Source of the DNA: Candidatus Latescibacterota bacterium
GTDB lineage: Bacteria; Latescibacterota; UBA2968; GCA-2709665
Length of the DNA: 64,000 nt
Assembly: GCA_965219455.1 (NCBI GenBank)
Contig: OZ244744.1
Location: 4,512,001 to 4,576,000 of the forward strand
Direction: 5' to 3'
The position numbers and the translations under genes are program-made. This document shows, piece after piece, positions 35,313-60,393 of this stretch; the stretch's first letter is position 1; each line of letters starts with the position of its first letter. The notes under the pieces were generated by a model. It ran no database searches and was not told the origin of the DNA. It saw only the letters and a program-made list of their open reading frames with translations.

Positions 35313-35426
35313 CAAAAGTGCATAAGGGTGGAGAAGGCGAGTGACGCTTTCAAGGAACTTGGCAGGGGCGGCATCTTCGACGTGCAATGTCAGACGGGGT
35401 CGCTATAAACCCGATCCGTCGGAAAC

Positions 35427-35661
35427 ATAAAGCGCTTGACCGGGCATGCGGAAAAACCAATATTAACAAGTGGATATCGATACATATGTTACGACACAAA
35501 AGCTTGAACGCGGGACGGACCTGCGATATATCCAGGTGTTGCTGGGGCATGCAAGCCCAAAAACCACACAGATCTATACTCGGGTGACGAATCGGGATCT
35601 CGCGAAAATCCAGAGCCCGCTGGATGCATTGATGGAAGAAAGGGAGGCAGTTTTTGATTAG
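35427..35661 (+). pseudogene. tyrosine recombinase/integron-integrase-like C-terminal remnant (copy 1)
   Basis: KALDRAC...SIHMLRH, frameshifting deletion, then LERGTDLRYIQVLLGHASPKTTQIYTRV...SPLDAL. Confidence 0.85.
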
Positions 35662-35798
35662 ATACGATGCCACCATAGGAAGCATTCCTGAACATGTTCG
35701 GGCTACAAGCTTCAAAGTGGGATGTTCCCGAACGTTCGCAGATCTTCGGATCAGGTACGCATTACCGTAACTGTTCGGTAATCCCGTAGTTAGCAGCC
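35662..35798 (+). other. putative attI-like primary recombination site (copy 1), crossover G|TT at 35789
   Basis: Homologous to 45168-45298 up to CGTAGTTA, then diverges; GTTAGCAGCC is the reverse complement of the inverse core of the next attC. Confidence 0.65.
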
Positions 35799-36157
35799 AT
35801 GCCAGTCGAATCCAATGATTGCGAATGACCTCCGTGCCGCTCTGGTTGCGGCGTTACCTGCACTCCTGCTTCCATCCTCATGACAGCGGGGAGGGTCGTT
35901 GAGGTCCTCGGGTTAAACGTGGGAGCGCTGGCAACCAGAGCGTTTTTCGTCCATTCTCTGACTTTGCTCCTGTTGCTCGGGACGATCCTGAGTTGACGGC
36001 GACAGCCGAGCTTGGGCTGCTGCTGGCCGGGTTCAGCCTGATATTTCTCGGCTTCTCGATCATGATGAGCGGCCGTGAATCATGGAAGGCCGTTCTCTGC
36101 GTTCTCCGCGGGCTCTGCGGGTAAAAAAAACCGGTACAGATTTTGGAGGTCATCGCT

Positions 36158-38416
36158 ATGATCAAGCCAAGTCACGAGTGGGTACGGCGGGCGCGCACCT
36201 TTCAGATAGAGCAATACCACCCGCCCTTCTGGCCCGACATCGACTTTGACGCGAAGCAGCTCGTCGATGTCGTGCGGAAATACCACGCCAACGCCATTTG
36301 GTTCGGCAGCGCGGGCAAATGGGCGGTCTTCCCCAATGAGTTCTTTCCCCCGCACCCTCAATTAAGTGAGCGCGACCTGCTCGCCGAGACCATCGCCGAG
36401 GCCCATGCGCGGGACGTGCGCGTCATCGGGTACATTCCCGTGGGGCACATTATTCCCGAAGACAACATGCTGATCCATCATCCGGAGTGGATGTACCGCC
36501 CCAGCCCCGAAGGCGACGCTCCTGTCCTGAGGCACCACGGCGGCGGATTTCACCGGCACGTCTGCTTCAACACACCGTACCGAGAGGCCATCTGCGCTTT
36601 CATCGCACAAGTGGTGGACCACGACGTCGACGCGATCTACACCGATTCTGCCTGTCCTTACCATTCGCACCACACCCCGCAGTCGCCCTTGTGCTACTGC
36701 GACTATTGCCTCGAGAAGTTCGAGAGGCAATTCGGCTGCCCAATGCCGTATGCACCCGATCCGCACAGCCTGCCTCGGGAAGACCAGGAGATGCTGGAAG
36801 AGTGGAGCCTGCAGTACGGCAGGATCGTCGGCGATGTCTTTCTCGAATTCGCCGCCGCGACGCGAAAGAAGAAGGACATCCCAGTGCTGACGCACGGCCT
36901 GGGTGTGGGCGACTGGCCCGAACGCAGGATCGTGGAGGTGCACGATGGACTCCTCTACGAGGCCGGGGGCGACTTCCTTCATCGGCTCGAGGCGGCCAGT
37001 CTGGCCGAGTCGTCGGGTTGGGCCATGTGGCAATACGTCGGCGCCTTGACGGGCTGGTCGCGGGCGCAGTGCTTCGGCATGGAACTCGTCGAGGAGGCGG
37101 CAGCCAGCTTTGCTTCCGGAGGGGCCGTCCTGGTGGCGTGCGGCGTGAACCTTTGGCTGTCGCCTCCCCATAAAGCCAATCGTGAGCTGGCGGAGCTCCT
37201 TGAGATCCTGGAGAGGAACGAGTCACTCTTCGAAGATCTCCACCCGTCACCGTTTGTTGCTATTCCGTTTGTTTTGCCGGTGCGGGTGTATGAGATGCTC
37301 GAGCGGGTGCGGTTCCGCGCCGAGCCCCTGGTGATGCGCGATCGTCGGCACGATGTCATCGGCCAGTCCAAGCAGGACCTCGCCGACCGTCCGGGGGAGC
37401 TCGAGGCCCCGCTCTCCGAGGCGGGCTATCTCGTGCGCACGCCCCCGCAGCAATCCTGCCGTCGCGGGGCCTTCTCGACCATGCTGGCCAACCATTTGCC
37501 GACATCGGTGATCGAGGAGCGGGTTCTCTCCGATCCAGCGGCGTTGGCAAAGTATCCCGTTCTGCTTCTGCCCAACGTCGGCCATCTCACGCGGGAGGAA
37601 GTCGAAGGCATCACGGAATATGTGAAGGCGGGCGGGCGGCTCCTGGCGACGTACCGGACGAGCCTGTACGGTGCCGAGCCCGATGAGATGCGCGACAACT
37701 TCGCCTTGGCGGACCTTCTGGGCGTGGACCGCGTGGACCCGAACCCCGACCAATTCGCTGATTACGAACAACACCTCTGGGCCGCCGGGACGTTCGACAC
37801 GTACGGCTGCTGCGTTCCAGGTCAATGGCTGGCCGAGGGGTGCTCGCATGAGCTGTGGCCGCTCAATCGGTTCGAGTTCGTCCAAGCGCGGCCGGGAACC
37901 GACGTGGTGGCGAACATCGTCTTCGGCGGGCGCGAGGACGACGCTCTGTGTCCCGCCGTCACCTGCCGGACGGTTGGCAAGGGCCGCGTCGTCTATCTGG
38001 CCGCGCCGGTGGAGGAGCTTCATTTCGAATATCGCCTGCTGGTGGTCCGCGATCTTCTGGGCGCCGTGGTGGATTGGCTCTACCCGGAGGGCCGGCCTCT
38101 GATGACCGATGGCCCGAACCAACTCGTGATGATTCCGAATGAGAAACCGGGAAGCCAAGTGTTGTTTCTGATCAATCACACCGGCGAGCGCGTCGAGCAT
38201 CTGCCGGGGATCTGGCCGCGCTTCAGCCCACAGTTTGACTATGTGACCACGATACCCGAAGTGAACCTGCGCTGGCAGCTCACGGAGCGGGGCACTCCTC
38301 GTCGCGTGTGGGACGTTTGCACGGGAGATGACCTGGAGGTCACGTTCGACGGAAACCACTTGGAAACCATATTAACGAACATTGGACAGTACGCGATGAT
38401 TGCCGCTGAGTTCTGA
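36158..38416 (+). CDS. putative glycoside hydrolase (GHL6/GH42-like TIM barrel plus trimerisation domain)
   Basis: RDLLAETIAEAHARDVRV, CFNTPY, CYCDYC, LAKYPVLLLPN..L...V..GGRLLATY.TSL. Confidence 0.7.
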   Translation: MIKPSHEWVRRARTFQIEQYHPPFWPDIDFDAKQLVDVVRKYHANAIWFGSAGKWAVFPNEFFPPHPQLSERDLLAETIAEAHARDVRVIGYIPVGHIIPEDNMLIHHPEWMYRPSPEGDAPVLRHHGGGFHRHVCFNTPYREAICAFIAQVVDHDVDAIYTDSACPYHSHHTPQSPLCYCDYCLEKFERQFGCPMPYAPDPHSLPREDQEMLEEWSLQYGRIVGDVFLEFAAATRKKKDIPVLTHGLGVGDWPERRIVEVHDGLLYEAGGDFLHRLEAASLAESSGWAMWQYVGALTGWSRAQCFGMELVEEAAASFASGGAVLVACGVNLWLSPPHKANRELAELLEILERNESLFEDLHPSPFVAIPFVLPVRVYEMLERVRFRAEPLVMRDRRHDVIGQSKQDLADRPGELEAPLSEAGYLVRTPPQQSCRRGAFSTMLANHLPTSVIEERVLSDPAALAKYPVLLLPNVGHLTREEVEGITEYVKAGGRLLATYRTSLYGAEPDEMRDNFALADLLGVDRVDPNPDQFADYEQHLWAAGTFDTYGCCVPGQWLAEGCSHELWPLNRFEFVQARPGTDVVANIVFGGREDDALCPAVTCRTVGKGRVVYLAAPVEELHFEYRLLVVRDLLGAVVDWLYPEGRPLMTDGPNQLVMIPNEKPGSQVLFLINHTGERVEHLPGIWPRFSPQFDYVTTIPEVNLRWQLTERGTPRRVWDVCTGDDLEVTFDGNHLETILTNIGQYAMIAAEF

Positions 38417-38555
38417 TTGAATCATCGACCTTGCCAGGCTGTTATCCCAACGTCCTTCCCGGAAGCGGGATCGTAAGGCCTCACCACAGAGCCACAGAGG
38501 TCGAATCGTGGAGTAGAGGGGCAGTCGAATGTCTTCCCAGTTCGAATCATGATAT

Positions 38556-38744
38556 GGTGAGACCGACCTCCATCTGCCACCTGGATGGGGGAGGGTCCCC
38601 TATTCCGACGCGATACCTCATCTGAAAGACTACGAAGGTCTTTGGATCCTAGAAGTCCACGAAAGATTCAGGGATAATTGGAGTGGATGCTTGGAAGTGA
38701 TGGAAAGGCTTTTTGAGGCAAAGAACCGAAGCACCGGCTGCTAA
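38556..38744 (+). pseudogene. 3' remnant of a sugar-phosphate isomerase/TIM-barrel cassette gene
   Basis: GETDLHLPPGWGRVPY...WILEV...*, with TAA inside the attC inverse core; no start. Confidence 0.5.
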
Positions 38745-38847
38745 CAGGTCCACTTGCGCTTCGGTCGCTTACGCTCCCTTCGGCCTGACGGCAACCCGCC
38801 TACGCTGACGCTTCGGCGGGTTCGCAAGTGGCCAGAAATCGTTAGCC
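38739..38847 (+). repeat. attC site
   Basis: GGCTGCTAAC...CCACTTGCG/CGCAAGTGG stem...GTTAGCC; similar to 50446-50540. Confidence 0.88.
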
Positions 38848-38946
38848 GCATTGATTTCCATACGTAGTTAGACAGCACGAGACAGCCTGTCCGCACTTTT
38901 ACAGTCCAATTGCGACGCAATTCTTACAGCAACACAAGAGGATATA

Positions 38947-39867
38947 ATGAGTATTGCTACTGAACCCTGCCCTGGGCAGCTACGCCACCACTCTTACGCC
39001 GTGGTGCGCGGTTTGTTCGACGCAGCGACGACAAAACGGCTGCGCGAGATCTGTGAGCGAGTGCTGGAACAGTGGCGGCGCGCTCCTCGCTGTGACAATC
39101 CACCGGTGGGGCCCCAGGCCAATTACATGAGGCACCTGAACGACCCGGAATATCACCGCGATCACCCCGACGATCTCGCCTTTCTGCTCAATGCCATGGG
39201 GTCGCCCCAAGTTGTCGAATCGCTGAGCGCAGCCTTGGATGAAGAATTCCTCTTCGCCTTGAGCAGTCTCTACTGTAATCCGACCGGAGAAAGCCAGGAC
39301 GGATTTTGGCACAAGGACAAGATCGGTGCAGAAGCAGACGTATCCCGGAGACCGGAGACCGGAGCCGGGTTGCAGATGCAAATCGCATTGGTCCCTACCG
39401 ACGATCTCGAATTGGTGCCGGGGTCTCACCTGCGTGACTACTCCCCCGAAGAGCACGCGATCTGCGTCGCCGATGATGGGATCCACAACCGCTCGAACGA
39501 TATGCCTGGCGCCGTTCGTCTCCACCAGGAACCCGGTGACGCGGTGCTGTTTACCCAGTTGTGCATTCATCGGGGCCGCTATCACACCGACAAGCTCAGG
39601 CGCTCGTTGATGATCTCGGTAAAAAAACGGGCCGCCGCAGAGTTCACGATGCGCCAGCGGGGGCTGAACTACGCCAGTGACCAGCCATGGTTTTTGCTGC
39701 CGCAATACTTCGATGGCGTCAGTGAGGATGCGCGAGCGTTCTTCCAGGAATTCGTCGGCTTCTACGCCCCGCATTGGCGCGCCCGGCTGACGGAGGTGTT
39801 GAAGTACTCGAGTCTGGTACAAAGCCTGGTGGAAGCCGGCGAGCCGTACCCGTTTTTTGGTGAATGA
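38947..39867 (+). CDS. phytanoyl-CoA dioxygenase family (Fe/2OG)
   Basis: WHKD, LELVPGSH, PGDAVLF....HRG. Confidence 0.85.
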   Translation: MSIATEPCPGQLRHHSYAVVRGLFDAATTKRLREICERVLEQWRRAPRCDNPPVGPQANYMRHLNDPEYHRDHPDDLAFLLNAMGSPQVVESLSAALDEEFLFALSSLYCNPTGESQDGFWHKDKIGAEADVSRRPETGAGLQMQIALVPTDDLELVPGSHLRDYSPEEHAICVADDGIHNRSNDMPGAVRLHQEPGDAVLFTQLCIHRGRYHTDKLRRSLMISVKKRAAAEFTMRQRGLNYASDQPWFLLPQYFDGVSEDARAFFQEFVGFYAPHWRARLTEVLKYSSLVQSLVEAGEPYPFFGE

Positions 39868-39946
39868 GAAGTCTGTCTGAATGAGTTAGCGGCTACATTT
39901 TGATACATAAGGCCCCGACAATGAACGGATACGAATTAATCACGAC

Positions 39947-40047
39947 GGCTAACACCGGCTTTACGCTTCGGGGCATCCGCCCCTCGGCCCTGCGGGCACA
40001 TGGGCCTTTGGGACTGGCCCACGTCGTAAAGCCAAGAACCGTTAACC
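39947..40047 (+). repeat. attC site
   Basis: CGGCTAAC...GGCTTTACG/CGTAAAGCC...GTTAACC. Confidence 0.88.
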
Positions 40048-40143
40048 GAAAGCGGCACAAAGACAGAGCGGCCATCCCTGGCCGCCAAAAGCAAAGAATC
40101 GCTGATACACCTCGATCCAGCATTTCACCTGAGGTGTAAACCG

Positions 40144-41649
40144 ATGACAGACATCAATCCATCATCGCCGCTGCGGCTCGAATTGTTCGTTGATGACTGG
40201 CTTGTGGAACGCTTCGAGGGCGACGCGGCGCAACATCTGCACGAGCCGTTGGGCAAAGAGGTCGTGCTGATGAACGACAAGCCCTGGGAAGACACTTCTT
40301 TGGGCTACGTCTCGGTACTCAAGGACGGAGATCTGTTTCGCATGTACTACCGCGGCTATCATCACGGCAGCGGCGAAGACGCCCGAGGCGAACCGATGTG
40401 TTACGCGGAAAGCCGCGACGGCATCCGGTGGACGAAGCCAAACCTTGGTCTATTCAAATTCAGAGGATCCTCGGACAACAACATCGTCCTCGGTGGGGAT
40501 GGCAGAAAGTACCTTCCCACCGACAAATGGCAAGGCAAACTGGGAACCCACACTGGCCTAGGATGGCGCGGCGACATGGTCCCGTTCATCGACACCAGCC
40601 CAACTGTAAAACCCGACGCTCGGTACAAGGCACTGGTCCGCGGGGCTCGCGGCGCGCACCAGATTCCGGGAAAATACACCGATTACGGCATGTATCCCTT
40701 CAAGTCGCCGGACGGACTTCACTGGACGTTGATGACCGAAAAGCCCGTGATTACGAAGGGGCGATTCGATTCGCAGAACCTGGCGTTCTGGGATCCGGTT
40801 CGCGGCCGCTACGTCGCATTCGTGCGGGATCTGCTAAAAGGTTATATGCGCAATGTGCACATGGCCGTGTCGGACGATTTTGTGAACTGGACGGAACCCG
40901 TCCCGCTGAAGTATTCGGACAAGGTCGACCGGGAGATGTACACCAACGGCGTCCTTCCGTATGAACGCGCGCCACACATTCTGATCGCCTTTCCCACCGA
41001 ATACACGGACCGGTTTGCCGTCGCCCAGGTCCATCCCATCCTGATGACCAGCCGCGACGGCGGGCACTCGTTCCTGCGACGCCGCGAACCATTGATTCCC
41101 GGCAGTGCGCCCCAGCAACGCGATGGCAACCGCGCCAACTTCATGGCCCACGGTCTGGTTCGTGGCAATGAGCGCGAGTACTTCGTCTACGCCACCGAAG
41201 GGTACGGATATGAGGACCCGGAGTGGAAGAGGAAGTCATTCGTGCCGAGGACGCGGCTCAGGCGTTTTACGTTCCGTGTCGACGGATTCGTTTCCGTCCG
41301 ATTCGGTCCGGACGGCGGAACGATCGTGACAAAACCGTTTGTGCTCAACGGCAGCCAACTGGAGCTCAACTACATCGCCTGGCCCCGACCTGCCGGGGAA
41401 ATCCGGGTCGAAATCCAGGATGCAAACGGCCAGCCCTTGAAGGGCCTAACGCTGAACGACTGCAAGCCACTGCGGGGTGACGAAATCGACCACCCGGTCA
41501 CGTGGCAGTCCGGACTCACTCCCGGGGATTACGCCGGAAAGCCCGCGCGCCTACAGTTCCAATTCAAACACGCGGACCTTTTCAGCTTCAGGTTCGCAGT
41601 CGGTCGTATCACAAAAAACGGCGACGCAGAAATCGAGGGTGATAAGTAG
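40144..41649 (+). CDS. beta-propeller glycosidase-like protein (GH32/43/130 clan-like)
   Basis: LFVDD, YAESRDGIRWTKPNLG, SPDGLHW, FDSQN..FWD, RVDGFVS. Confidence 0.7.
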   Translation: MTDINPSSPLRLELFVDDWLVERFEGDAAQHLHEPLGKEVVLMNDKPWEDTSLGYVSVLKDGDLFRMYYRGYHHGSGEDARGEPMCYAESRDGIRWTKPNLGLFKFRGSSDNNIVLGGDGRKYLPTDKWQGKLGTHTGLGWRGDMVPFIDTSPTVKPDARYKALVRGARGAHQIPGKYTDYGMYPFKSPDGLHWTLMTEKPVITKGRFDSQNLAFWDPVRGRYVAFVRDLLKGYMRNVHMAVSDDFVNWTEPVPLKYSDKVDREMYTNGVLPYERAPHILIAFPTEYTDRFAVAQVHPILMTSRDGGHSFLRRREPLIPGSAPQQRDGNRANFMAHGLVRGNEREYFVYATEGYGYEDPEWKRKSFVPRTRLRRFTFRVDGFVSVRFGPDGGTIVTKPFVLNGSQLELNYIAWPRPAGEIRVEIQDANGQPLKGLTLNDCKPLRGDEIDHPVTWQSGLTPGDYAGKPARLQFQFKHADLFSFRFAVGRITKNGDAEIEGDK

Positions 41650-41718
41650 GTCATCGATGATGGTGTGGAACTGCTTCCGGTTGGACGAATTCACAAAAAG
41701 TAAATGGAAGTCCCGAAC

Positions 41719-41988
41719 ATGAGAGTTCCATCAACCCACCAAATTTCTCTTCTAGCGTTGGCCATAATCGCGCTGATCGCGCCGGATTGTTGCCTTGCCG
41801 AGCAACCGAAGATCGGCCGCGGCAAAAGCTGGGTTCGTTCGCATCCGTTTTGGATTAGCGGGCTGACGCAAAATGGAGCGTTGTACGACGTGGAAGAATA
41901 TCGTGGCGCGGGACTCAACACGTTGTTGGCTTGGAAACCGCGGCCCGTCTTGTTCGAAAAGTCGGTGGCCGCCCCTTTGCTCGTGTGA
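41719..41988 (+). pseudogene. 5' fragment of secreted protein, truncated next to IS91 remnant
   Basis: Signal peptide, then abrupt end adjacent to the transposase fragment. Confidence 0.45.
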
Positions 41989-41989
41989 T

Positions 41990-42225
41990 CGAGCTGCCCT
42001 TCACGACCGGTGGAGACACAGCGTCCCTGGACCCGTTCAAGGTGTTGAGGCTCGGGGTGGCGGGGTCAGGAGGCGTCATCGAATTCGGACTGAGGGAGGG
42101 GGGGCGTGGAGGCGCGATGGGCGGCGCGCGTGAGGCCAGGCCGACCCCGTCGAGGTAGGTGCGAATGGCCAGGGGCTCGGCCAGTGCGGCAATGATCTTC
42201 ATCTTGCCGCCACAGGCGGATGACA
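41990..42225 (-). mobile_element. IS91-family (rolling-circle) transposase C-terminal remnant
   Basis: CGGKMKIIAALAEPLAIRTYLDGVGLASRAPPIAPPRPP resembles the IS91/IS801 C-terminus; boundaries approximate. Confidence 0.65.
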
Positions 42226-42322
42226 TGACGTGTGTAGTTCTGAGAATCGAGTAGATTTTCTGAAGACAAAGACATCCCAAGCTTGCATCCTGCAACCCCA
42301 CCCAACCACCGTGCCGCACGCC

Positions 42323-42398
42323 CGTTAACAAAAGATGTGCGGCTCACTACGTTCGCCCAAACCGCCTGCGGCGGCTTCGCACATCAAGCACGTTATGC
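42323..42398 (+). repeat. attC site
   Basis: CGTTAAC...GATGTGCG/CGCACATC...GTTATGC. Confidence 0.85.
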
Positions 42399-42534
42399 GA
42401 AACTGGCGCAGAGCAGGAACCGCATCCACCCACCCCTTGTCAAGGCGGGCAAGATCAAACCCAGACCACCCTTGCGCTGAAAGTCACGTGAAACCTCTTA
42501 TGCACTTTACTCTGTCTCCAGGAGAGGACCAAGG

Positions 42535-42987
42535 ATGCCTGCCATTCGCTATCAGGCGGCAATAGTTGCAGACGATCGTCTACTTTTGCTGAAAGTCAAC
42601 GATCGAGGCACCGGAGAAACCTTCTGGGTGATCCCGGGTGGAGCCCGAGAGCCGAACGAAACGGAGGAAGAGTGTATTCGGCGTGAAGTGCTCGAAGAGA
42701 CGCACCTTTGTGTCGAAGTAGATTCGATGATCCTTGACGAGCAGGCGCCTGTTTATGACACGATATATGAGTGGCAGAAAACGTATAGGTGTCGAGTTGT
42801 TTCCGGAGAACCTCAGTCAGGAATTGAACCTGAAGTCGACACCGCAGATCATACCACTATTGCAGAGACTGGGTGGTTCGATCTGCGAACACCTACCACC
42901 TGGGATTCATTGGCGCTGAAGGATCCTATCACATTACCCTTGTTGCAACGCCTCAGGCGTATTTTGGGCTACTCTGGAGAGGGATAG
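42535..42987 (+). CDS. NUDIX hydrolase
   Basis: PGGAREPNETEEECIRREVLEET. Confidence 0.88.
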   Translation: MPAIRYQAAIVADDRLLLLKVNDRGTGETFWVIPGGAREPNETEEECIRREVLEETHLCVEVDSMILDEQAPVYDTIYEWQKTYRCRVVSGEPQSGIEPEVDTADHTTIAETGWFDLRTPTTWDSLALKDPITLPLLQRLRRILGYSGEG

Positions 42988-43109
42988 AGACTTCGGAACC
43001 ATTTCGCAGCTGATTCTGATTCGGGGAACAGCCACAACAAACCTGATATCGTTGCCCGCTCTACGCTGGCCCTATGAGGGCTTCGCCAGAAAGGGACCGC
43101 GCCAGATTC

Positions 43110-43252
43110 GCATAACAACGGCACCCCCGGCTTCGGCGCGTCCGCGCCTCCGCGCAACCTGCCTGTCGCTGTCACGGCGCTTGCTTGAAGAAAATCGCGA
43201 GGGGCAAGCGCCGCGCCAGCTTGGCAGGTTCGTGGGTGCTTGACCGTTATGC
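43110..43252 (+). repeat. attC site (long type)
   Basis: TTCGCATAAC is the reverse complement of cassette start GTTATGCGAA; closely similar to 58997-59141. Confidence 0.9.
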
Positions 43253-43338
43253 GCCATGCCGTTTTTTTGTCTGATTCCTTATCGAAAAGGGGGCAAAAAA
43301 CAACCCAGCCCTACCCTGAAGCGCAAGTCATTAAGTAG

Positions 43339-43367
43339 TTGCATTTTCCTATAAATTATTGTAAAAT
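43339..43367 (+). promoter_or_regulatory. cassette-borne sigma70 promoter (likely leaderless mRNA)
   Basis: TTGCAT-N17-TAAAAT, with ATG 6 nt after the -10 box. Confidence 0.65.
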
Positions 43368-43373
43368 ATAATT

Positions 43374-43631
43374 ATGCCGGAGATTAGTCGATTTCTTGGG
43401 ATCGTGATTGGTATGTTTTATCGTGAGCACGGACCACCCCATTTTCACGCCACATACGGTGAATATGACATCACGGTCGATATTGAGACAGGCGTTGTGA
43501 CAGGCCAATTTCCTAGACGGGCTCTGAGGCATGTTCTGGAATGGTATGATCTGCACCAAAGAGAACTGATGGAGAATTGGGAACGCGCAGACCAGCGTCG
43601 TCCGTTGAATAAAATTGCACCCTTGGAGTGA
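43374..43631 (+). CDS. DUF4160 family protein (putative toxin)
   Basis: MPEISRFLGIVIGMFYREHGPPHFHA...W. Confidence 0.9.
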   Translation: MPEISRFLGIVIGMFYREHGPPHFHATYGEYDITVDIETGVVTGQFPRRALRHVLEWYDLHQRELMENWERADQRRPLNKIAPLE

Positions 43632-43635
43632 GAAG

Positions 43636-43905
43636 ATGATACCCCGTGTGATTGAAGCTCACTATGTAGGCGACTATGTGATCTGGCTCAAATTCAGTGA
43701 TGGTGTGGAGGGAGAGGTAGAGTTGAAAGATGAACTATGGGGTCCCGTTTTTGAGTCGTTGAAGGATAAAGAGGAATTCAAGAAATTCCGAGTTCACCCT
43801 GACCTACATACGATAATGTGGAAGAATGAAGCCGACTTCGCACCTGAATTTCTCTACAGTATTGTCAAAGTTACGGCCTGTGTGGGAAGTTTCTTTTTTC
43901 TGTAG
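43636..43905 (+). CDS. DUF2442 family protein (putative antitoxin)
   Basis: LKFSDG.EGEV.L...GPVFESL....F...TIMWKNEADFAPE.LY. Confidence 0.88.
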   Translation: MIPRVIEAHYVGDYVIWLKFSDGVEGEVELKDELWGPVFESLKDKEEFKKFRVHPDLHTIMWKNEADFAPEFLYSIVKVTACVGSFFFL

Positions 43906-44084
43906 CTCATTGAGAAGAAAAAGCAACTCTCCACCTCGGCGGTTTGACTTAATACCGCCGATTTATTTTATCTTGGAAGTTTTTGGAGGTCAAAATCAAG
44001 AAAACCAAAAGAAGGTTATGTCGGCCCCGTTATGGCTTTACCCTCTAGACGACGATCCTAGATGTATTAAAGTTCAGCGCGACG

Positions 44085-44417
44085 GTGGGATTGAGTGGAT
44101 TCCTCCTTCTACTCGTAACCTCGATTAAGTCGTGCGACATAGAGGAAAGCCAACTAGCTCAAATCGAGGCGATGCGAGGACAGTTGTCGCAAGCCAGTGC
44201 GCGAATGGAGCACGTCTTAACCGAGTTGCAGTTACAGAGCGAGCTAATGCGTGAACAGGGCGGCACTTCTATGGCTCTCCTTTCGACAATCGAAAGTATC
44301 GACGAGAGAGTTCAGACTATCTCTGTAGTGACGAACCGCATAGACATGATAGGCGATGAACTAAAGGAGACCCACGAGACTGTGGGTGCTTCCCATAAAA
44401 CGAAAACGCAAGATTAG
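44085..44417 (+). CDS. hypothetical coiled-coil protein, possibly a fragment
   Basis: Hydrophobic start followed by heptad-rich sequence. Confidence 0.4.
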   Translation: MGLSGFLLLLVTSIKSCDIEESQLAQIEAMRGQLSQASARMEHVLTELQLQSELMREQGGTSMALLSTIESIDERVQTISVVTNRIDMIGDELKETHETVGASHKTKTQD

Positions 44418-44732
44418 AACGAATGTCAGCGCCGTTTTCGTTCTTGACAGATCCACCGGTTTCTATTTGAACACGATAACAAAGAACTTCCGACAGACGT
44501 CTAGCTTGTACACAGATAGCCAATCTCTATTACAGAATCCGGGCTCAGGGTTGACCAGTTGCAAGGGAATTCGATGGTTCCCGATCCTTCAATTGTAGTG
44601 ATTGCTTTGCTCATTCTTGCTCCCGTTTTTGTGGGGATTCTCTTTAAGCTCTTCAGCCCCCGAATGCGCTCAGTTACCGATGCGCGAATGCTTATGGCAG
44701 ATGAACAACCGGCCTTCCCTACGTGCCCATAT

Positions 44733-45167
44733 AGAGTGAGACAACCCAGGGGGTATCGCGCGAAAACGCGAAAAGCGTACCTTGGTCACGTCAGACGATT
44801 TGCCAATTATTGCGGCAAGGCACCTCGATCTTTTGGGGAGATGGAGGTCCGAAATTACGTGTATCACCTCCTTGAAACGGGAGCCTCGCACAGTTACGTC
44901 AATCAGTGCGTAAGTGCATTGAAATTCCTGTTCCTTCGAGTGTTGAAAGATCAGCATCCTCTTGAAAACCTGCCCCGTCCGAAAAAAGAGCACAAATGCG
45001 ACACACCTGCTTGAACGCGGGACCGACCTGCGATATATCCAGGTGTTCCTGGGCATGCAAGCCCAAAAACCACACAGATCTATGCTCGGGTGACGAATCG
45101 GGATCTCGCGAAAATCCAGAGCCCGCTGGATGCATTGATGGATGAAAGGGAGGCAGTTTTTGATTAG
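44733..45167 (+). pseudogene. tyrosine recombinase/integron-integrase-like remnant (copy 2) with internal deletion
   Basis: RGYRAKTRKAY...SHSYVNQCVSALKFLF...LPRPKKEHK joined out of frame to ATHLLERGTDLRYIQ...SPLDAL. Confidence 0.88.
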
Positions 45168-45304
45168 AGACGATGCTACCATAGGAAGCATTCCTGAACA
45201 TGTTCGGGCTACAAGCTTCAGCGTGGAATGTTCCCGAACGTTCGGAGATCCTCAGATCTGGTACGCATTAACGTACATGTTCGCCAATGCCGTAGTTATG
45301 CGCC
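45168..45304 (+). other. putative attI-like site (copy 2), crossover G|TT at 45295
   Basis: Homologous to 35662-35792; GTTATGCG matches the inverse core CGCATAAC at 46001. Confidence 0.65.
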
Positions 45305-45327
45305 AGCACGTGAGTACGACACTCATC

Positions 45328-45357
45328 AAGCCACCCGTTAATAAGCCACCCGTTAAT
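45328..45357 (+). repeat. 15-bp tandem duplication
   Basis: AAGCCACCCGTTAAT x2. Confidence 0.9.
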
Positions 45358-45365
45358 CGACAACG

Positions 45366-46007
45366 TTGATCCAGATAGGCGACTATTCCTTGGACGATGT
45401 TCTGAAGAAGGCAGACGAACTACGGAAGGAAACTGATGACCTGATCCATCGAAGAGGGTTGGGTCAGATTCTTAGCTCTTTCGGGAGGGTGTGGTATAGA
45501 GGCAGCTACGAACTGAATACAATGGCATGGGCCGACCTAGACATCCACATAGTGATGGAACCTGATCCCTGGTCAGTTGATGAGTTCTTCAAGTTGGGGG
45601 CCCGAATTGCGTCACTTGAGGGGGTGATTTCGATGAAGTTCGATGATTGTGCTCATCATCCTCGGGACGTGCTTCCGGAGGGCCTCTATTGGGGTACACG
45701 AATGGCCAGGGGAAAGAGCGAAATTCCCTGGAAGATAGATTTATGGTCCACAAGATCTGAACTTCTTGAAAGGGACAAGCTTCGGATTGCGAGAGTAAAA
45801 GAGCGAATGACTGAGTCACATCGAAGGAAGATCCTCAAAATCAAACACTCGCTCCTGACACCTGAGGGGAGAACGCCGGACTCGACCGGAAGACATATTT
45901 ACGATGCCATTCTTTTTAAAGGTCTTGAAACTCTTGGGGAAGTTAAAGACTACCTCCGAGCCAAAGGCATAAAGGACTTGCAGGGAAAACACGTGCCGGA
46001 CGCATAA
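45366..46007 (+). CDS. Pol-beta-superfamily nucleotidyltransferase-like protein
   Basis: GSYELNTMAWADLDIHI (GS..DxD) and WKIDLW; stop lies in the attC inverse core. Confidence 0.6.
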   Translation: MIQIGDYSLDDVLKKADELRKETDDLIHRRGLGQILSSFGRVWYRGSYELNTMAWADLDIHIVMEPDPWSVDEFFKLGARIASLEGVISMKFDDCAHHPRDVLPEGLYWGTRMARGKSEIPWKIDLWSTRSELLERDKLRIARVKERMTESHRRKILKIKHSLLTPEGRTPDSTGRHIYDAILFKGLETLGEVKDYLRAKGIKDLQGKHVPDA

Positions 46008-46087
46008 CACGACAGGCTGCGGCTCCGGGGCATTCGCCCCTTCGCTCAACCCGCTGCGCGGGTTCGCAGCCTGCGAGAACGTTAACA
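46002..46087 (+). repeat. attC site
   Basis: GCATAAC...CAGGCTGCG/CGCAGCCTG...GTTAACA. Confidence 0.88.
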
Positions 46088-47694: not shown

Positions 47695-47821
47695 TGTTAA
47701 CAGCGCACTCCCGGCTCGCTTCGCTCGACCAAAATGGCCGTGACTGATTCTCTGACTGATTGTAAAACCACTGATTCCTTCCCCAGGCACGGCCACTTCG
47801 GGAGCGCGCGAACCGTTAAAT
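47695..47821 (+). repeat. attC site
   Basis: TCTGTTAAC is the reverse complement of GTTAACAGA at 46081; GGCCGTG/CACGGCC stem; ends GTTAAAT. Confidence 0.82.
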
Positions 47822-47958
47822 GCAAGCAGCGCAGGAATCTTGAAAACCCAAACCGTGTAAGAATCGCGATGGCGGTAGATGTCCGCGCTACGCGAGTTCA
47901 CGTTCGGGCATCGTTACAGGTTCGCTCCGGAGGGATTGCGAGGGTCACAGATACAGGC

Positions 47959-48402
47959 GTGGATAAGAGGATTGCGTTCGTCCAATCGTGCTGGCACAAG
48001 GACATAGTCGACCAGGGTAAGATCGGATTTTTAGATAGGGCGAACACCCTCGGGATAGCGGCCGAGGGAGTCGAGTTTTTCGAAGTGCCCGGGAGTTTTG
48101 AGATTCCTCTATTGGCCAAACTCCTCGCCGAATCTGGAAAGTACTCTGCCATTGTAGCGGTGGGGCTGGTAGTTGATGGAGGCATATATAGGCATGAGTT
48201 CGTAGCTGAAGCGGTGATCAGTGGGATCATGAAACTCCAGCTTGAAACAGATATTCCAATAATCTCAGTTGTGCTGATCCCCCATAATTTCCACGAAACA
48301 GAAGATCATAGAGAGTTCTTTCGGCAGCACTTCATGGTCAAGGGCGAAGAAGCAGCTGACGCCTGCGCTAAGACCTTAGAGAACCTTGCTGCTATCGCTT
48401 GA
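47959..48402 (+). CDS. ribH: 6,7-dimethyl-8-ribityllumazine synthase, type II (RibH2-like)
   Basis: RIAFVQSCWHKDIV, VPGSFEIP, VVDGGIYRHEFVA, PHNFHE, KGEEAA. Confidence 0.88.
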   Translation: MDKRIAFVQSCWHKDIVDQGKIGFLDRANTLGIAAEGVEFFEVPGSFEIPLLAKLLAESGKYSAIVAVGLVVDGGIYRHEFVAEAVISGIMKLQLETDIPIISVVLIPHNFHETEDHREFFRQHFMVKGEEAADACAKTLENLAAIA

Positions 48403-49043: not shown

Positions 49044-49142
49044 ATTTAACATGACGGGCTGAGGCTCCGGCGCTTTCGCGCCTCCGACCCAACCTGCCTA
49101 CGCTGCGCTTCGGCAGGTTCGCAGCCCGCTTGAACGTTAGGG
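49044..49142 (+). repeat. attC site
   Basis: GCATTTAAC is the reverse complement of GTTAAATGC at 47815; CGGGCTG/CAGCCCG stem. Confidence 0.9.
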
Positions 49143-49145
49143 GCC

Positions 49146-50365
49146 ATGCGATCGGATGTTAGGTTTCCGATGACACAGAGGAGAGATGTGAAGGCGTACA
49201 AGGTAGGGCTACCCGGGCTGTTCCTCTTCTTATTTGCGCTCGCCGGCAGTTCCGAATCGATAAAGGAAGAAGGAGGAGCCTTGATGCTTAACGCGTGGGT
49301 TGTCTCGACCCTCAAGGCCGAAGGTCTAGCCCCGGAGCTGATTGCTGACCTAACGGCCAGAATAAGAAACCAGGACTATAAGAATATTCACAGCCTTTTG
49401 ATCGCTCGAAATGGCAACCTGGTTTATGAGGAGTACTTTCCTGGTGCCGATGGAAGGAGAGGAGTCGTCGAATTCGATAAGGAAACTCTGCACGATACAA
49501 GGTCTGTCTCGAAGAGCATCGCATCATCGTTGATAGGCATCGCAATTGACCAAGGATATATCGGGTCAGTTGATGAACCCATGTACCAATATTTTCCGGA
49601 CTACACGAACCACCTGACCGAGCAGAAGAAACGCGTAACTTTGGAACACCTGCTGTCAATGACGGCGGGGTTCAAATGGGATCAATCCGGTTCACATCAG
49701 TCCGAACTCGGATCGGCCAACACGGAAGCGCAAATGGAAAACAGCTTTGATTTCATCGACTACGTGCTGTCCGCCGATATGTCAGCCACAGCTTTGATTT
49801 CATCGACTACGTGCTGTCCGCCGATATGTCAGAGGAGGGAGAGCGTTTCAATTACAATAGCGGCTGCGCCATTCTCCTCGCTGGTGTGATCAGGAACGTA
49901 TCGGGAATGCACGCAGATAAGTTCGCTGACAAGTATCTCTTTGGGCCATTGGGCATCGATCGTAATGAATGGTGGCGAACAAAGACCGGTTTACCACAGA
50001 CACATGCGGGTCTGCGGCTTCGCCCTCGGGATATGGCCAAGATCGGACAGCTTTATCTCAACAATGGGAGATGGAAAGGTCTGCAAATTCTACCCGCATC
50101 GTGGGTTGAGGAGTCCATAAAGCCACACTTCGTAAACGATCGATATGGATACGCCTGGTGGCTCGACCGCTTTCCTTTCCACGAGGGATCCGTCAAGAGT
50201 TACGTCGCTGAGGGCAACGGAGGACAATTCATTTTTGTAATCCCAGACTTGGATTTAGTGGTCGTCTTTACAGGCGGCAACTACGGCTCCTCCACTGCGA
50301 ACCAGGCTTTCAAAATCGTAATCAATCACGTATTGAAAGCTGTTAGCCAAGAAACGAGTGAGTAG
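49146..50365 (+). pseudogene. serine hydrolase (class C beta-lactamase-like family), frameshifted
   Basis: SVSK, LLSMTAG in ORF1; FNYNS, LFGPLGI, RPRDMAKIG, GNGGQ in ORF2; split by the duplication at 49741-49832. Confidence 0.85.
49741..49832 (+). repeat. 45-bp tandem duplication with 2-nt spacer
   Basis: ACAGCTTTGATTTCATCGACTACGTGCTGTCCGCCGATATGTCAG at 49741 and 49788. Confidence 0.95.
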
Positions 50366-50445: not shown

Positions 50446-50540
50446 CCCTAACAGGTCCACTTGCGCTTCGGTCGCGTTCGCTCCCTTCGGCGTGAAGGCA
50501 ACCCGCTAAAGCGGGTTCGCAAGTGGCCAGAACGTTAAGC
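50446..50540 (+). repeat. attC site
   Basis: CCCCTAAC is the reverse complement of GTTAGGGG at 49136; same family as 38739. Confidence 0.9.
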
Positions 50541-50629: not shown

Positions 50630-51367
50630 ATGCAAAGCGAACGGAGGCATGATTTGAGCGAGCCAGAGCGAACCCAGGAGTTTTTCGCCAAGCGCGCAGC
50701 CAGGTGGGAGCATTTCGTAAAAAAAGAGTGGCTACCCGATGATTACGAGCACTATTATACGCTTCTCGCTTCAGGGATTTTATCCACTCAAGACGCAATA
50801 AGAATTCTGGACCTTGGGTGCGGTGGTGGTATCGAGTTTGAGTGGATTTTCCGGCAAGCCCCGAATGCCCACATAACCGCCGTCGATCGATCCGGACCAA
50901 TGCTCGATTGTTTGCGCGAGAAATACGGTGAGTGTCTCGACCAGTTCCAAATCATTCAAGACAACTACCTCACCTGTCCTCTGTCGGAGGAAGCATACGA
51001 CTACGTCGTGACGAGTATGTCGGTGCACTACTTCCCTCCTTCCAAACGTCGTGAGATCTATGAACGCATCGAACGGGTGCTGAAACCTGGCGGCGCTTAC
51101 GTAGAAGGGACCTATTGTAGCGACTCTGAAGAGGAAGAGCGCCAAGTGCTCAATGCGTTCGAACACCGAACTGCAGGACTGGATGGCGCAGATTCTGGGG
51201 AGTGGAAGGTCAACATCCCCCTGCAACCTACAACGATTAGCCGTCACTTGAAACAAGCCGGTTTTGCCGGCGGCGAATGGTTGGCTGGCGAGCGTTGGGT
51301 TGTTTTGGCACGAAAGGCAGCCTCTCAGGGCTCAGGATGCGACTACGACCAGCGGGAGTTAATTTGA
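50630..51367 (+). CDS. class I SAM-dependent methyltransferase
   Basis: ILDLGCGGG, VDRS, LKPGG. Confidence 0.88.
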   Translation: MQSERRHDLSEPERTQEFFAKRAARWEHFVKKEWLPDDYEHYYTLLASGILSTQDAIRILDLGCGGGIEFEWIFRQAPNAHITAVDRSGPMLDCLREKYGECLDQFQIIQDNYLTCPLSEEAYDYVVTSMSVHYFPPSKRREIYERIERVLKPGGAYVEGTYCSDSEEEERQVLNAFEHRTAGLDGADSGEWKVNIPLQPTTISRHLKQAGFAGGEWLAGERWVVLARKAASQGSGCDYDQRELI

Positions 51368-52345
51368 GTGGATAAGCGATCTCTGCAGGCTCTAGCAAAA
51401 GACGAAAGAACAGCAGCATTGCACGCGCTGGCCGAAGCCAGTCTTGCTGACTTTGATTTGACGGGAGGCTCGCTCCTGTTGCTGCAGGATCTAGTGAATA
51501 GCTCATTCCGGGTTCAACATGACAGCCGACGGTGGTATCTTCGTATTTACGATCCCGACAGGCATGATACATCAGTTATCGAGTCTGAACTCTTGTTCTT
51601 GGAAGCTCTCGCCAAAGGCGGCTTTCCAGCGCCTCGCCCGTTGCGTAAGCACAGTGATGGGATGCTTTGGGTGGCGTCGCAGAGCCCTGTTGTGGACGTA
51701 ATTCGAATATCAGTATGCTCTTGGCTTCCGGGAGAGATTTTGCAGCATGGCAAGACACCACCGCACTATGCCAACGTAGGAACCATGTTAGCAGAACTCC
51801 ACGAGTTCTCCGTCAAATGGAATCCACCCGAGGGGTTCGTACGTCCCCGTTGCGACAGTGAAGGTGTATACGGCAATCACGGTGCTTCAGGAGAGCAAAT
51901 CATGCGAGGCTGGGACAACATTGACGATCCGCTTCGCTCGGATCTTGAAGATGCGAAGAGAGCACTTGAACAGGCCGAGAGCGCTATTGGGACGGATTGC
52001 GGTGTCTACGGTTTGATCCACGCTGATCCAAGTTTCAGCAACGTCCTGTTTGATGGCGAAATACCATACCTGATCGATTTCGATGATTTCGGGTACGGCC
52101 ACTATGTCTTCGATCTCGCAGTTGTCTTGGCTGGCGCATGGGGCAAGCCTGGTTTCGAAGAGAATCGCGCTGCTTTGTTCGAAGGATACGGGCAAATACG
52201 AGAACTGTCGCAGGCAGAAATGAGGGCATTGCCCACAGCCATGGCAGCACGAGCTGCCTCGCTCATTTTCTGGGCTGCGACTCAGTCATCGCAGCATCCA
52301 TGGATTGAAGGGCAGTGGAAACGCCTCAAGAAATACATGGGGTAG
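51368..52345 (+). CDS. phosphotransferase (APH/homoserine kinase II-like)
   Basis: LIHADPSFSNVL and IDFDD. Confidence 0.85.
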   Translation: MDKRSLQALAKDERTAALHALAEASLADFDLTGGSLLLLQDLVNSSFRVQHDSRRWYLRIYDPDRHDTSVIESELLFLEALAKGGFPAPRPLRKHSDGMLWVASQSPVVDVIRISVCSWLPGEILQHGKTPPHYANVGTMLAELHEFSVKWNPPEGFVRPRCDSEGVYGNHGASGEQIMRGWDNIDDPLRSDLEDAKRALEQAESAIGTDCGVYGLIHADPSFSNVLFDGEIPYLIDFDDFGYGHYVFDLAVVLAGAWGKPGFEENRAALFEGYGQIRELSQAEMRALPTAMAARAASLIFWAATQSSQHPWIEGQWKRLKKYMG

Positions 52346-52356
52346 AAATCCACATC

Positions 52357-52443
52357 GCTTAACACCGTGTTTTCGCTGCGCCGCCTACGGCGGCTTGGCC
52401 TTCGGCAACCCCTTCGGGGTTCGCAAACCCTGAAACGTTATGC
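52357..52443 (+). repeat. attC site
   Basis: TCGCTTAAC is the reverse complement of GTTAAGCGA at 50534; ends GTTATGC. Confidence 0.88.
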
Positions 52444-53353: not shown

Positions 53354-53455
53354 GCATAACACGCCCACTTGCGCTGCGGCGCATACGCGCCTTGGCCTTC
53401 GGCAACCCACCTTCGCTACGCTTCGGTGGGTTCGCAAGTGGCGAGAACGATATAT
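53354..53455 (+). repeat. attC site ending in non-canonical G|AT
   Basis: GGCGCATAAC is the reverse complement of GTTATGCGCC at 52437; ends GAGAACGATATATG. Confidence 0.85.
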
Positions 53456-54392: not shown

Positions 54393-54483
54393 ATATATCA
54401 CATCCATTTACGCTACGGGGCATTCGCCCCTTGGCCTTCGGCACCCCGCATACGCGGGGTCGTAAATGGTGAGAACGTTAAAC
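54393..54483 (+). repeat. attC site with non-canonical ATC inverse core
   Basis: CATATATC...CCATTTACG/CGTAAATGG...GTTAAAC. Confidence 0.82.
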
Positions 54484-54999: not shown

Positions 55000-55103
55000 G
55001 GCTAACAACACGTTTGCCGCTACGGCGGCCTCCGCCGCCTTGGCCTTCGGCAACCCACCTTCGCTACGCTTCGGTGGGTTCGCAAGTGGCGAGAACGTTG
55101 GCC
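55000..55103 (+). repeat. attC site
   Basis: GGCTAAC...GTTGGCC; right ~60 bp identical to the 53354 site. Confidence 0.85.
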
Positions 55104-55124
55104 GAAATTGCCCCACCGCCTTAG

Positions 55125-56805: not shown

Positions 56806-56880
56806 TTAGAAACTGCTTGTGAGAAATTTATCTCCATTTCCAAACATCCAATCCCATATTCCTGAAGGAGCGTGTAATTC

Positions 56881-57874: not shown

Positions 57875-57978
57875 GGCCAACACGAGCATCTGCGCTGCGC
57901 TCCACTTCGTTCCGCTCGGGGCTTCGCCCAACCCGCCCAAAAAGCCGGGCGGGTTCGCAGGTTTGCGGGCCGTTAACC
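57875..57978 (+). repeat. attC site
   Basis: TTCGGCCAAC is the reverse complement of GTTGGCCGAA at 55097; ends GTTAACC. Confidence 0.88.
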
Positions 57979-58996: not shown

Positions 58997-59141
58997 GGCT
59001 AACAACGGGCACCCCCGGCTTCGGGGCTTGCACCCCTTCGCGCAACCTGCCTGGCGCTGTCACGGGCGCTTGCTTGATGAGAATCGTGAGGGGCAAGCGC
59101 CGCGCCAGCTGGGCAGGTTCGTGGGTGCTTGACCGTTAGAT
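58997..59141 (+). repeat. attC site (long type)
   Basis: TCGGCTAAC...GTTAGAT; closely similar to 43110-43252. Confidence 0.9.
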
Positions 59142-60246: not shown

Positions 60247-60393
60247 GAATTTCGACGGGGTTCTGGATGGACACCGAGCCAGCGAGCACGGGCTCTACAA
60301 CATATTGGTCCAGGAACTCACCTGCTTTGGTCGGCGAAGTCTGGCCTTCGCTCTGGAGCCGTTGTAAGACCTGGAGACTTCCAGACCCATTTA

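Follow-up and report, generated by a model that had tools for sequence, protein, structure and literature searches.

A probable degraded, co-oriented chromosomal integron with repeated attI-type sites in a Latescibacterota genome

Two copies of a recombinase tail and its downstream module

The genome analysed here, Candidatus Latescibacterota bacterium assembly GCA_965219455.1, is a single contig of 5.84 Mb (OZ244744.1), and the stretch that we call the window comprises the 64,000 nucleotides from position 4512001 to 4576000 of it. Our subject is a segment that occurs twice in the window, as copy A and copy B, together with the long run of gene cassettes in which these copies are set. Each copy consists of the last ~55 codons of a tyrosine-recombinase pseudogene followed by a ~131-bp non-coding module. 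The DNA to the left of copy A is core chromosome, with ~60% G+C and 93% identity to the sister genome up to position 35312, and this flank ends with a gene for a peptidoglycan-binding-domain protein. The remnants of the recombinase were placed by tblastn of P0003, a 310-residue open frame in the sister genome (G013). The parts of the two copies are as follows.

35348-35497, forward strand: copy A, decayed catalytic-domain remnant (P0003 residues 214-252, 50% identity), the N-terminal ~213 amino acids being absent
35491-35661, forward strand: copy A, C-terminal tail (LLGH..Y..SPLD; residues 255-309, 93%), with the stop codon at 35659-35661
35662-35792, forward strand: copy A, putative attI-type module, conserved core from ~35681, predicted crossover G35789/T35790
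44628-45005, forward strand: copy B, N-terminal SAM-like domain in the open reading frame (ORF) 44559-45014 (PF13495, 2.7e-15; residues 1-126, 97%)
44998-45167, forward strand: copy B, C-terminal tail, not in the reading frame of the N-terminal part and with a further 1-nt frameshift, stop codon at 45165-45167
45168-45298, forward strand: copy B, putative attI-type module, predicted crossover G45295/T45296 (from the conservation break and complementarity)

The original prediction, made from the letters of the window alone, had described two homologues of ~290 bp here. Alignment of 35492-35792 with 44999-45298 by MAFFT and BLAST bears this out at 92.4% identity over 301 columns, with the predicted starts (35502 and 45009) ~10 nt short, and in a genome-wide search the pair matches at E = 1.5e-121. 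As predicted, the likeness stops directly after CCGTAGTTA (35784-35792 and 45290-45298; CCGTAG|TTA); the DNA beyond is unrelated, and a different cassette follows each copy.

Searching the whole genome at E <= 0.001 returned five copies, all on the forward strand, with copy C lying 7.4 kb past the window and copies D and E 27.5 and 158 kb past it. The homology between copies A and C reaches further upstream (35432-35796 versus genome 4583331-4583698, 88.7%, BLAST). A gene tail is readable in copies A, B and C, while the modules of D and E are 0.77 and 0.82 identical to that of A and their gene tails are at shuffle level (0.61 versus 0.58). A sixth, weak module copy with a decayed tail (70% identity) is found away from the main array at 2.05 Mb (genome 2047748-2047878). 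This sixth module is followed by a weak match to a cassette recombination site (attC), and two good attC matches stand at 2.54 Mb (2542942-2545873); further small arrays are present in the genome besides the main one.

The translation of copy A ends in LERGTDLRYIQVLLGHASPKTTQIYTRVTNRDLAKIQSPLDALMEEREAVFD before its stop, or in a fuller reading in LLGHASPKTTQIYTRV..IQSPLDALMEEREAVFD, and matches the last 47 positions of TIGR02249 (269-315) and the end of PF00589. The gene is frameshifted in addition to missing its first ~213 residues. Copy B has an internal deletion of ~128 codons of the catalytic domain, and in copy C the final ~85 residues remain, interrupted by a stop. With P0003 as tblastn query, no intact copy of the recombinase was found in the whole genome, which yielded fragments and, as the only other matches, two Xer-like genes at 33-35% identity; with TIGR02249, no integron integrase in the genome scored above the cut-off. 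As every gene copy is broken, the array is frozen unless an enzyme is supplied in trans, which agrees with the original prediction that both enzymes of the window are dead.

An array of attC-type sites begins behind copy A

A self-comparison of 210 kb revealed many short direct repeats of 60-155 bp. Fourteen of these align well, reading ..TAAC, a 10-nt stem, a variable hairpin, GCAACC..GGTTCG, a return stem and ..AACGTTA, and their RNAalifold consensus has compensatory changes in 9 of the 17 predicted pairs, including the L''/L' stem. These direct repeats are attC-type sites. A strict palindrome scan for such sites returned just 3-5, and a loose scan returned ~12 per 20 kb genome-wide with no discrimination, and both were replaced by a covariance model (R1) built from the 14 local sites, with borders taken from anchor motifs. 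Run on the window and a further 216 kb (~280 kb), R1 detects 48 attC-type sites at E <= 1, all on the forward strand, of which 14 are inside the window and none lies before 38739, i.e., none before copy A. Directly behind copy A there thus begins an array whose attC sites number at least 48 and share one strand. Its units in the window are listed below.

35790-38847, forward strand: first cassette behind copy A, with a GHL6-type glycosyl-hydrolase-like ORF at 36143-38416 (Pfam) and attC 38739-38847
39947-40047, forward strand: attC of the PhyH cassette, ORF 38947-39867 (R1, Pfam)
42323-42398, forward strand: attC (R1, E = 0.00019)
43110-43252, forward strand: attC behind the NUDIX cassette (ORF 42535-42987), left border of the unit carrying copy B
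43249-44558, forward strand: cassette X, with DUF4160 (43374-43631), DUF2442 (43615-43905) and a 110-aa ORF (44085-44417)
45296-46087, forward strand: first cassette behind copy B, with ORF 45366-46007 and attC 46002-46087
47695-47821, forward strand: attC placed by eye and not listed by the covariance model, folding end to end
49044-49142, 50446-50540, 52357-52443, 53354-53455 and 54393-54483, forward strand: attC sites (R1) with cassettes between them
55000-55103, 57875-57978, 58997-59141 and 60964-61067, forward strand: attC sites (R1) with cassettes between them

The cassette genes are unrelated to one another. By Pfam they include a glycosyl-hydrolase-like gene, PhyH, NUDIX, the DUF4160/DUF2442 pair and an alpha/beta hydrolase, among others, and further genes for a lumazine synthase, a methyltransferase, a phosphotransferase-family protein and a SAICAR synthetase. 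ORF 45366-46007 matched no Pfam family, and R1 found no attC belonging to cassette X itself before copy B (43252-46002).

The module ends in a G|TT junction

We aligned 37 copies of the module, from this genome and its relatives, on the module end. Pairwise identity is 1.00, 1.00, 0.95 and 0.85 at the successive positions G, T, T and A and then falls to 0.37, 0.35 and 0.30, with 25 distinct sequences following the 37 copies. Two positions past the break (+4 and +7) retain some conservation, as expected for the outer half of an R' box. Behind copy A the sequence reads GTTAGCAGCC, and the first bases of the cassette, TTAGCAGCC, form the complement of the R'' box GGCTGCTAAC of attC 38739-38847, which comes 2.9 kb later. 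The same relation was scored in 20 module-to-first-attC pairs, which include some mutual orthologues and in which the downstream position of the attC was checked by coordinates. Over the 8 variable bases past GTTA, the match to the reverse complement of the next R'' averages 5.55/8 in the 20 cognate pairs versus 2.88/8 in 380 non-cognate pairs. This complementarity marks the bases that come after G|TT as part of the cassette.

The module folds as local hairpins only, on both strands, whereas two attC sites of the window fold end to end from R'' to R' (z = -3.7 and -4.9), and no R'' box was found at its 5' end. The idea that the module is itself an attC or a repeat like those of Vibrio cholerae is ruled out on these two grounds, and the absence of an attC-like stem had been predicted correctly, as had the palindromes GAACATGTTC and CGAACGTTCG, both of which lie within the module. 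We also discarded the possibility that the module is an IS91 end, since IS91-type units in one related genome (G020) have no similarity to it and no transposase, including any Y2 (HUH) transposase, lies behind any module.

The start of the array behind copy A, the break at G|TTA in 37 copies, the pairing with R'' and the position of the module behind the stop codon of homologous recombinases (see below) support the proposal that the module is an attI-type primary site, whose predicted crossover can be placed to the base. We think it likely that within the window the core chromosome gives way to the beginning of a very large and sedentary integron-type array, and that the repeats are remnants of its platform, each made of a recombinase 3' end pointing toward the cassettes and an attI of ~118-131 bp. 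Our verdict on the locus is accordingly a degraded, co-oriented chromosomal integron.

Some cassettes of the array are themselves repeated. The PhyH cassette with its attC (38848-40060) recurs 39 kb downstream, behind another attC, at genome 4590071-4591283 (99.9% over 1213 bp), and the cassette sequences 60304-60783 and 51364-52340 are duplicated within the array at 94% and 86%. By Pfam family only, 56881-57846, 47734-48402, 51368-52345 and 49146-49889 match SAICAR synthetase, lumazine synthase, an APH-family phosphotransferase and a beta-lactamase/transpeptidase-family fragment, so that some cassette genes resemble those of housekeeping or modifying enzymes. An insertion sequence lies within the array at 55118-56808 (DDE_Tnp_1_4 transposase 55187-56572, E = 1.1e-155). 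It has a second, inverted copy at genome 4694689-4696379 (99.6% identical), and related copies at 75% identity break the G013 array at three places. In addition, an ORF-less mini-cassette of 26-40 bp directly follows an attC or attI at 38848-38873 of the window and at seven further loci (L053, L054, L055, L056, L059, L062 and L073). Its end, ..TTTCCATACGTAG|TTAG, resembles the crossover core of the module; its 17-nt motif was found in 7 of 97 loci, and the window has a single occurrence, which differs at one position from the 9-nt core. The mini-cassette may represent an attI that has been truncated, as described for mobile integrons.

Platform units in different contexts in a sister genome

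The sister genome G013 is 98-99% identical to the window in the cassettes that they share, and the order of the shared pieces differs. In G013 the core flank is followed by a tail remnant with an attI, then by DNA corresponding to window 43246-44997 (cassette X plus the N-terminal gene part), then by a segment of the catalytic domain that is absent here, then by DNA of 35426-38652 (the tail and module of copy A with the first cassette) and finally by the rest of the interval between A and B. The N-terminal piece of copy B and the C-terminal piece of copy A are thus the two ends of the G013 frame P0003. Cassette X (from 43249) follows attC 43110-43252 here, whereas in G013 it follows an attI and, again, that same attC, and in both contexts its homology begins at TTA. 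Integron-type recombination has a signature of just this kind, in which one piece of DNA is joined at G|TT behind an attI at one site and behind an attC at another. G|TT junctions also enclose, on both sides, the unit that carries the recombinase gene together with its attI.

These arrangements fit a scheme in which an intact enzyme would bind the module, whose crossover core would lie at its 3' end (..CCGTAG|TTA) and whose four GTTC-containing repeats or palindromes would be likely accessory binding sites. By exchanging strands at the step between G and TT with a circular cassette's folded attC, the enzyme would then bring new cassettes in directly behind the module. Recombination of an upstream attC or attI with a downstream attI could in turn move or duplicate the segment with the recombinase gene and attI, because gene, attI and attC sites all point the same way, and such duplication would explain the platform copies at five places inside the array. 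The repeats, the array, the exact junctions, the cassettes shared between different contexts and the domain content are observed; where the enzyme binds, that it catalyses these reactions and the route of duplication are what we infer.

The original prediction had read copies A and B as two platforms fused in tandem. The repeated platform stands, and the count and the simple fusion do not, as the genome holds five or six copies and as A (C-terminal part) and B (N-terminal part plus tail) are halves of what in G013 is one near-full-length gene. The five or six platform remnants are spread through one array and were probably copied by the same site-specific reactions.

The same observations could be told the other way round, with gene and module forming a selfish, cassette-like element that inserts into arrays through a site of its own without serving them, the module being its attachment site. 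In favour of this, platform copies lie inside the array with G|TT at both borders, the unit 43249-45295 stands behind an attC in this genome and behind an attI in G013, and two modules in other genomes stand 18 bp behind an attC. However, copy A and the copies at L033 and L034 stand at the head of an array beside conserved chromosomal genes with no attC upstream, and every module precedes cassettes whose first bases belong to the next attC. This account overlaps the best explanation rather than excluding it, and as a full alternative to the integron reading we regard it as very unlikely.

Independent assemblies and public contigs

Repeats of 300 bp can mislead assemblers, and a trivial explanation would be that the assembly is chimeric here, or that a segment was simply duplicated in a way that has no site-specific meaning. 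The public contigs in which we searched for the window are short Logan contigs that break at repeats; none of those listed spans the whole ~10 kb, and they are no proof of long-range order. Nevertheless, the genome itself is in one contig, five independently assembled genomes (G013, G011, G003, G010 and G014) have the same multi-copy pattern, and the likeness of the copies ends on G|TT throughout the 37-copy alignment. Contigs from four runs of four studies cover 30/30 or 29/30 bins, and the junctions of attI with cassette are bridged by contigs of run X1 at copy A and of runs X15, X17 and X1 at copy B. We see no sign of an assembly chimera, and hold this explanation to be so improbable as to be almost negligible beside an integron platform copied at its own sites.

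Some contigs have joints that fit site-specific events, namely 45294 to 46081 (X17), 42390 to 43245 (X17 and X20) and 42395 to 45301 (X20), and in X15 and X17 a less decayed version of the gene stands at the position of copy A. All are weak hints, as the joints have 18-26 letters on the shorter side (fewer than 30) and the gene version 21, and the several continuations seen behind 35792 may be the genome's own other copies. The runs that contain the stretch or parts of it (X1-X20) come from 12 studies and carry sponge, coral, seawater and marine metagenome labels, and the organism is probably a sponge-associated member of the Latescibacterota.

The segment and its recombinase in related genomes

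Of the 14 other genomes in the genus, 12 have the segment, as do 25 of all 41 genomes searched (counting this genome, G000), mostly in several copies. The named relatives are metagenome-assembled genomes of the candidate phylum Latescibacterota. attC arrays were detected in 28 of the 41 genomes, including 13 of the 14 other genus members, and relatives of P0004, a full-length form of the recombinase, in 10 of the 41 at E <= 1e-30. On the related loci, R1 returned 82 attC matches at E <= 0.1 in 36 loci, all on the strand of the module. The original prediction had proposed a search for the segment downstream of homologous recombinases, and there it is: in close homologues with intact or near-intact genes (L033 and G013, the loci L014 and L031 being the same gene) the module directly abuts the stop codon, with 74-99% identity between modules. 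Separate modules without a gene tail also head arrays (L068-L071). At a further locus in G016 (L096/L088, 1717001-1731000), a 331-aa homologue with 56% identity and no N-terminal domain has attC sites on both sides.

The recombinase resembles integron integrases and XerA but lacks the I2 domain

In relatives the full-length enzyme is ~376 aa long; P0004 is 97% identical to P0003, and P0005 is the intact form of the L033 type. P0004 matches PF00589 at 9.9e-42, and the residues R224, K249, H314, R317, H340 and Y349 are invariant in 53 homologues. Against TIGR02249, the integron integrase model, P0003 and P0004 score 213-214 bits versus a cut-off of 265, while the canonical integron integrase (IntI) of G017, used as control, scores 464.7 in one stretch. 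The match of P0003 and P0004 is in two stretches, skipping positions ~175-234, and in an alignment with the G017 protein the recombinase is missing ~41 residues, including the ..KYP.A...W.WQ.VFP stretch, which we take to be the motif of the IntI additional domain. The IntI-specific additional (I2) domain is thus absent and the score remains below the cut-off: the enzyme is not a canonical integron integrase.

At its other end, an AlphaFold model (pLDDT 84.8) predicts an N-terminal beta-beta-alpha-beta-beta-alpha domain at residues 14-68, for which 30 of the 53 homologues give weak matches to HARP (PF07443; best E = 5.1e-4, all below the Pfam threshold). This HARP-like domain may recognise structured DNA. 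Among solved proteins, the Vibrio integron integrase 2a3v is the closest in sequence (2.1e-43) and also in fold, with XerA coming after it, and the best NCBIfam model for P0004 is NF040815, "site-specific tyrosine recombinase/integron integrase" (222.7 versus a cut-off of 220). Judged by these matches, the family is nearest to integron integrases and XerA, without the I2 domain and with an N-terminal HARP-like domain.

Similar layouts in distant metagenome loci

To ask the question without a fitted attC model, we took metagenome relatives at 35-55% identity with at least 700 bp behind the gene and looked for a GTT 40-200 nt past the stop codon. A locus was positive if the 7 bases after this GTT exactly matched the R'' box of a later site that also has a stem. 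The counts were as follows.

Loci with the N-terminal domain: 4/13 positive
Other loci not linked to IS91 (no N-terminal match): 3/11 positive
IS91-linked loci: 0/37 positive
Permuted controls, 20 replicates: 0 positive

In the seven exact positives, 66-113 nt separate the stop codon from GTT; the corresponding spacing is 128 nt in this window and 127 nt in L033. Among the loci with the N-terminal domain, the four that have more than 3 kb of downstream DNA are all positive (L116, L124 and L142 exactly, L117 with one mismatch). When one mismatch was allowed, controls gave 2-7 positives versus 12 real ones with a 15-400 nt window and means of 0.20-0.85 with a 40-200 nt window; since controls turn positive in this way, we relied on the exact-match version. 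Clear attC sites lie between unrelated co-oriented genes in L116, L117 and L124, where the genes include an EcoRI-type methylase, a GmrSD/HNH protein and an FAD oxidase. The recombinases of L114, L116, L117, L124 and L142 match TIGR02249 in two stretches at 193-214 bits, below 265; in P0003 and P0004 this two-stretch pattern leaves out the positions of the additional domain. On 36 non-IS91 metagenome loci R1 returned just two matches (L165 and L136), each located upstream of the gene on the other strand; R1 is fitted to the attC sites of the present lineage, so few metagenome matches say little. The attC sites of L165 and L136, which come from one study, are placed as in classical divergent integrons. 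An inverted-repeat search behind L035, L037 and L033 gave nothing interpretable.

The IS91-linked loci form a branch of their own. G020 holds six near-identical 2.5-kb units, each a 283-aa recombinase of the family followed by an IS91-type transposase, and five of these six copies (L090-L095) are within a few kb of same-strand attC arrays. In G017 (L025/L097), two IS91-type copies lie ~400 bp behind the canonical integron integrase gene. IS91-type elements with this recombinase may prefer integron platforms or arrays as targets.

Which enzyme moved the cassettes

From the module behind its stop codon to the distant loci, these results suggest that a separate clade of recombinases, sister-like to IntI and XerA, lacking I2 and carrying a HARP-like domain, could serve as the integrase of co-oriented platforms in Latescibacterota and other uncultured lineages, with the platform being copied like a cassette to give arrays with multiple attI sites. 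We put this forward tentatively, as a proposal that falls somewhat short of an even chance.

Several findings weigh against this proposal or against the wider reading of the locus as an integron served by this recombinase. Among the 41 related genomes, canonical IntI proteins over the TIGR02249 cut-off occur in two, G017 and G036, of the same order. No fully intact 376-aa gene was found in the genus genomes searched; that of G013 is without the N-terminal domain and that of G011 is frameshifted. In G016 the recombinase is on the strand opposite to the flanking attC sites, unlike the co-oriented layout. The additional domain is described, in the cited passages of PMC9024848 and PMC9668308, as enabling recombination of the folded single-stranded attC, and an enzyme without it may be unable to carry this out. 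In the exact-match test, 17 of the 24 non-IS91 loci were negative, many of them with less than 2 kb downstream. Of 8000 candidates scored, 7652 were relatives at E <= 1e-20, making the protein family huge, and a recombinase paired with an IS91-type transposase occurs in 44 of 80 metagenome loci; with so large an IS91-linked branch in so huge a family, membership says little about function. Finally, a consensus scan found no sigma-70-like promoter site within the module, although this may not be the consensus of the host; two such sites at 35436-35490 are within the pseudogene, and the host phylum may use another type of promoter.

Several of these points would be accommodated if the locus were the relic of an ordinary integron, in which a canonical IntI, since lost or acting in trans, moved the cassettes, the domain-less recombinase was a passenger or part of another element and the module was a preferred secondary site. 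The additional domain is held to be necessary for attC recombination in the parts of PMC9024848 and PMC9668308 that we cite, a canonical IntI is at hand in G017 and G036, and the recombinase family does have its IS91-linked branch. Set against this, the module always lies directly behind the stop codon of this particular recombinase, a canonical IntI over the cut-off is found in 0 of 15 genus genomes (counting this one) despite their attC arrays, strains that are 98-99% identical differ in their arrays by events at G|TT, and the layout of gene, attI and cassettes recurs in distant lineages and not at all in controls. We consider the relic account unlikely, though it is the alternative that we take most seriously, and favour an array headed by its own recombinase and attI, in which the domain-less enzyme would be the mover of cassettes.

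Comparison with known systems

Integrons with an "inverted" integrase of the Treponema denticola type are the first comparison to make. The passages cited from PMC3607928 and PMC4889954 describe Treponema integrases transcribed toward attI and the cassettes, and the long chromosomal array and the G|TT insertion point are shared with our locus. The Treponema enzyme is a canonical IntI with the additional domain, whereas here the domain is absent, the N-terminus is HARP-like and there are 5-6 platforms per genome. For archaeal integrons (Ghaly et al. 2022, PMC9668308), the portions cited place a putative attI with a canonical insertion point immediately downstream of intI, which is the position of the module here, and most of their arrays are attC clusters with no integron integrase (CALINs). 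The archaeal IntIs differ in being reported with the additional domain and, according to the same portions, in having been selected by it.

With attC sites and no gene matching the IntI-specific profile, our locus resembles a CALIN as outlined in the sections cited from PMC4889954 and PMC9024848. IntI is defined by the additional domain in the cited text of PMC9024848 and PMC9668308 and in IntegronFinder, and the array here would probably be called a CALIN by that program. For most CALINs, the passages of PMC4889954 cited above report no recognisable intI pseudogene nearby with an IntI profile. In contrast, recognisable platforms, i.e., recombinase pseudogenes with a conserved primary site, stand here both at the head of the array and inside it. 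Internal attI sites have a precedent in mobile class 1 and class 2 integrons, where an attI or truncated attI inside the array serves as the 3' site of a cassette (PMC12901181, cited in part). Those are short resistance arrays with IntI1 or IntI2, enzymes that carry the additional domain, whereas here attI copies are accompanied by pieces of the integrase gene in a chromosomal array of more than 100 kb.

Two further comparisons concern the enzyme. IS91-family elements with an upstream tyrosine recombinase carry a protein of the same family (40-51% identity, SAM-like and catalytic domains). The IS91-linked genes differ in their length of 283-314 aa, in having no N-terminal domain and in the Y2 transposase within ~12-70 bp, and they have neither the module nor any attI/attC signature (0/37). 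XerA of archaea (PDB 5hxy and 4a8e), which resolves chromosome dimers at dif, is alike in the best-scoring NCBIfam model (NF040815) and in the similar length of the two core domains. It differs from the present enzyme, whose gene heads cassette arrays, which has an extra N-terminal domain and whose best solved relative is the Vibrio integrase.

Compared with the parts of an integron, then, the locus has a co-oriented attC array and an attI-type site beside the integrase gene with insertion at G|TT, and it lacks a functional integrase gene. It is an integron in architecture, with an enzyme that fails one defining IntI feature. No prior description of such a system was found in the literature searched, which did not extend to subscription journals and supplements.

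Meaning for integron biology

The unexpected part of the finding is the enzyme. Both in one genus and in distant metagenome lineages, a recombinase lacking the additional domain is linked with a conserved primary site and large attC arrays, and the many natural copies allow the attI-type site to be mapped to the base without an experiment. Because current tools define IntI by the additional domain, such arrays would be filed as integrase-less CALINs. If the enzyme is inactive on attC sites, the locus would still be a degraded chromosomal integron, well documented and unusual for the number of its internal attI copies. If it is active on them, there would be a way to recombine cassettes other than through the additional domain, some of the CALINs now in unexplained excess would have an enzyme, and a natural protein would make it possible to test the step that leads from Xer-type to integron-type recombination.

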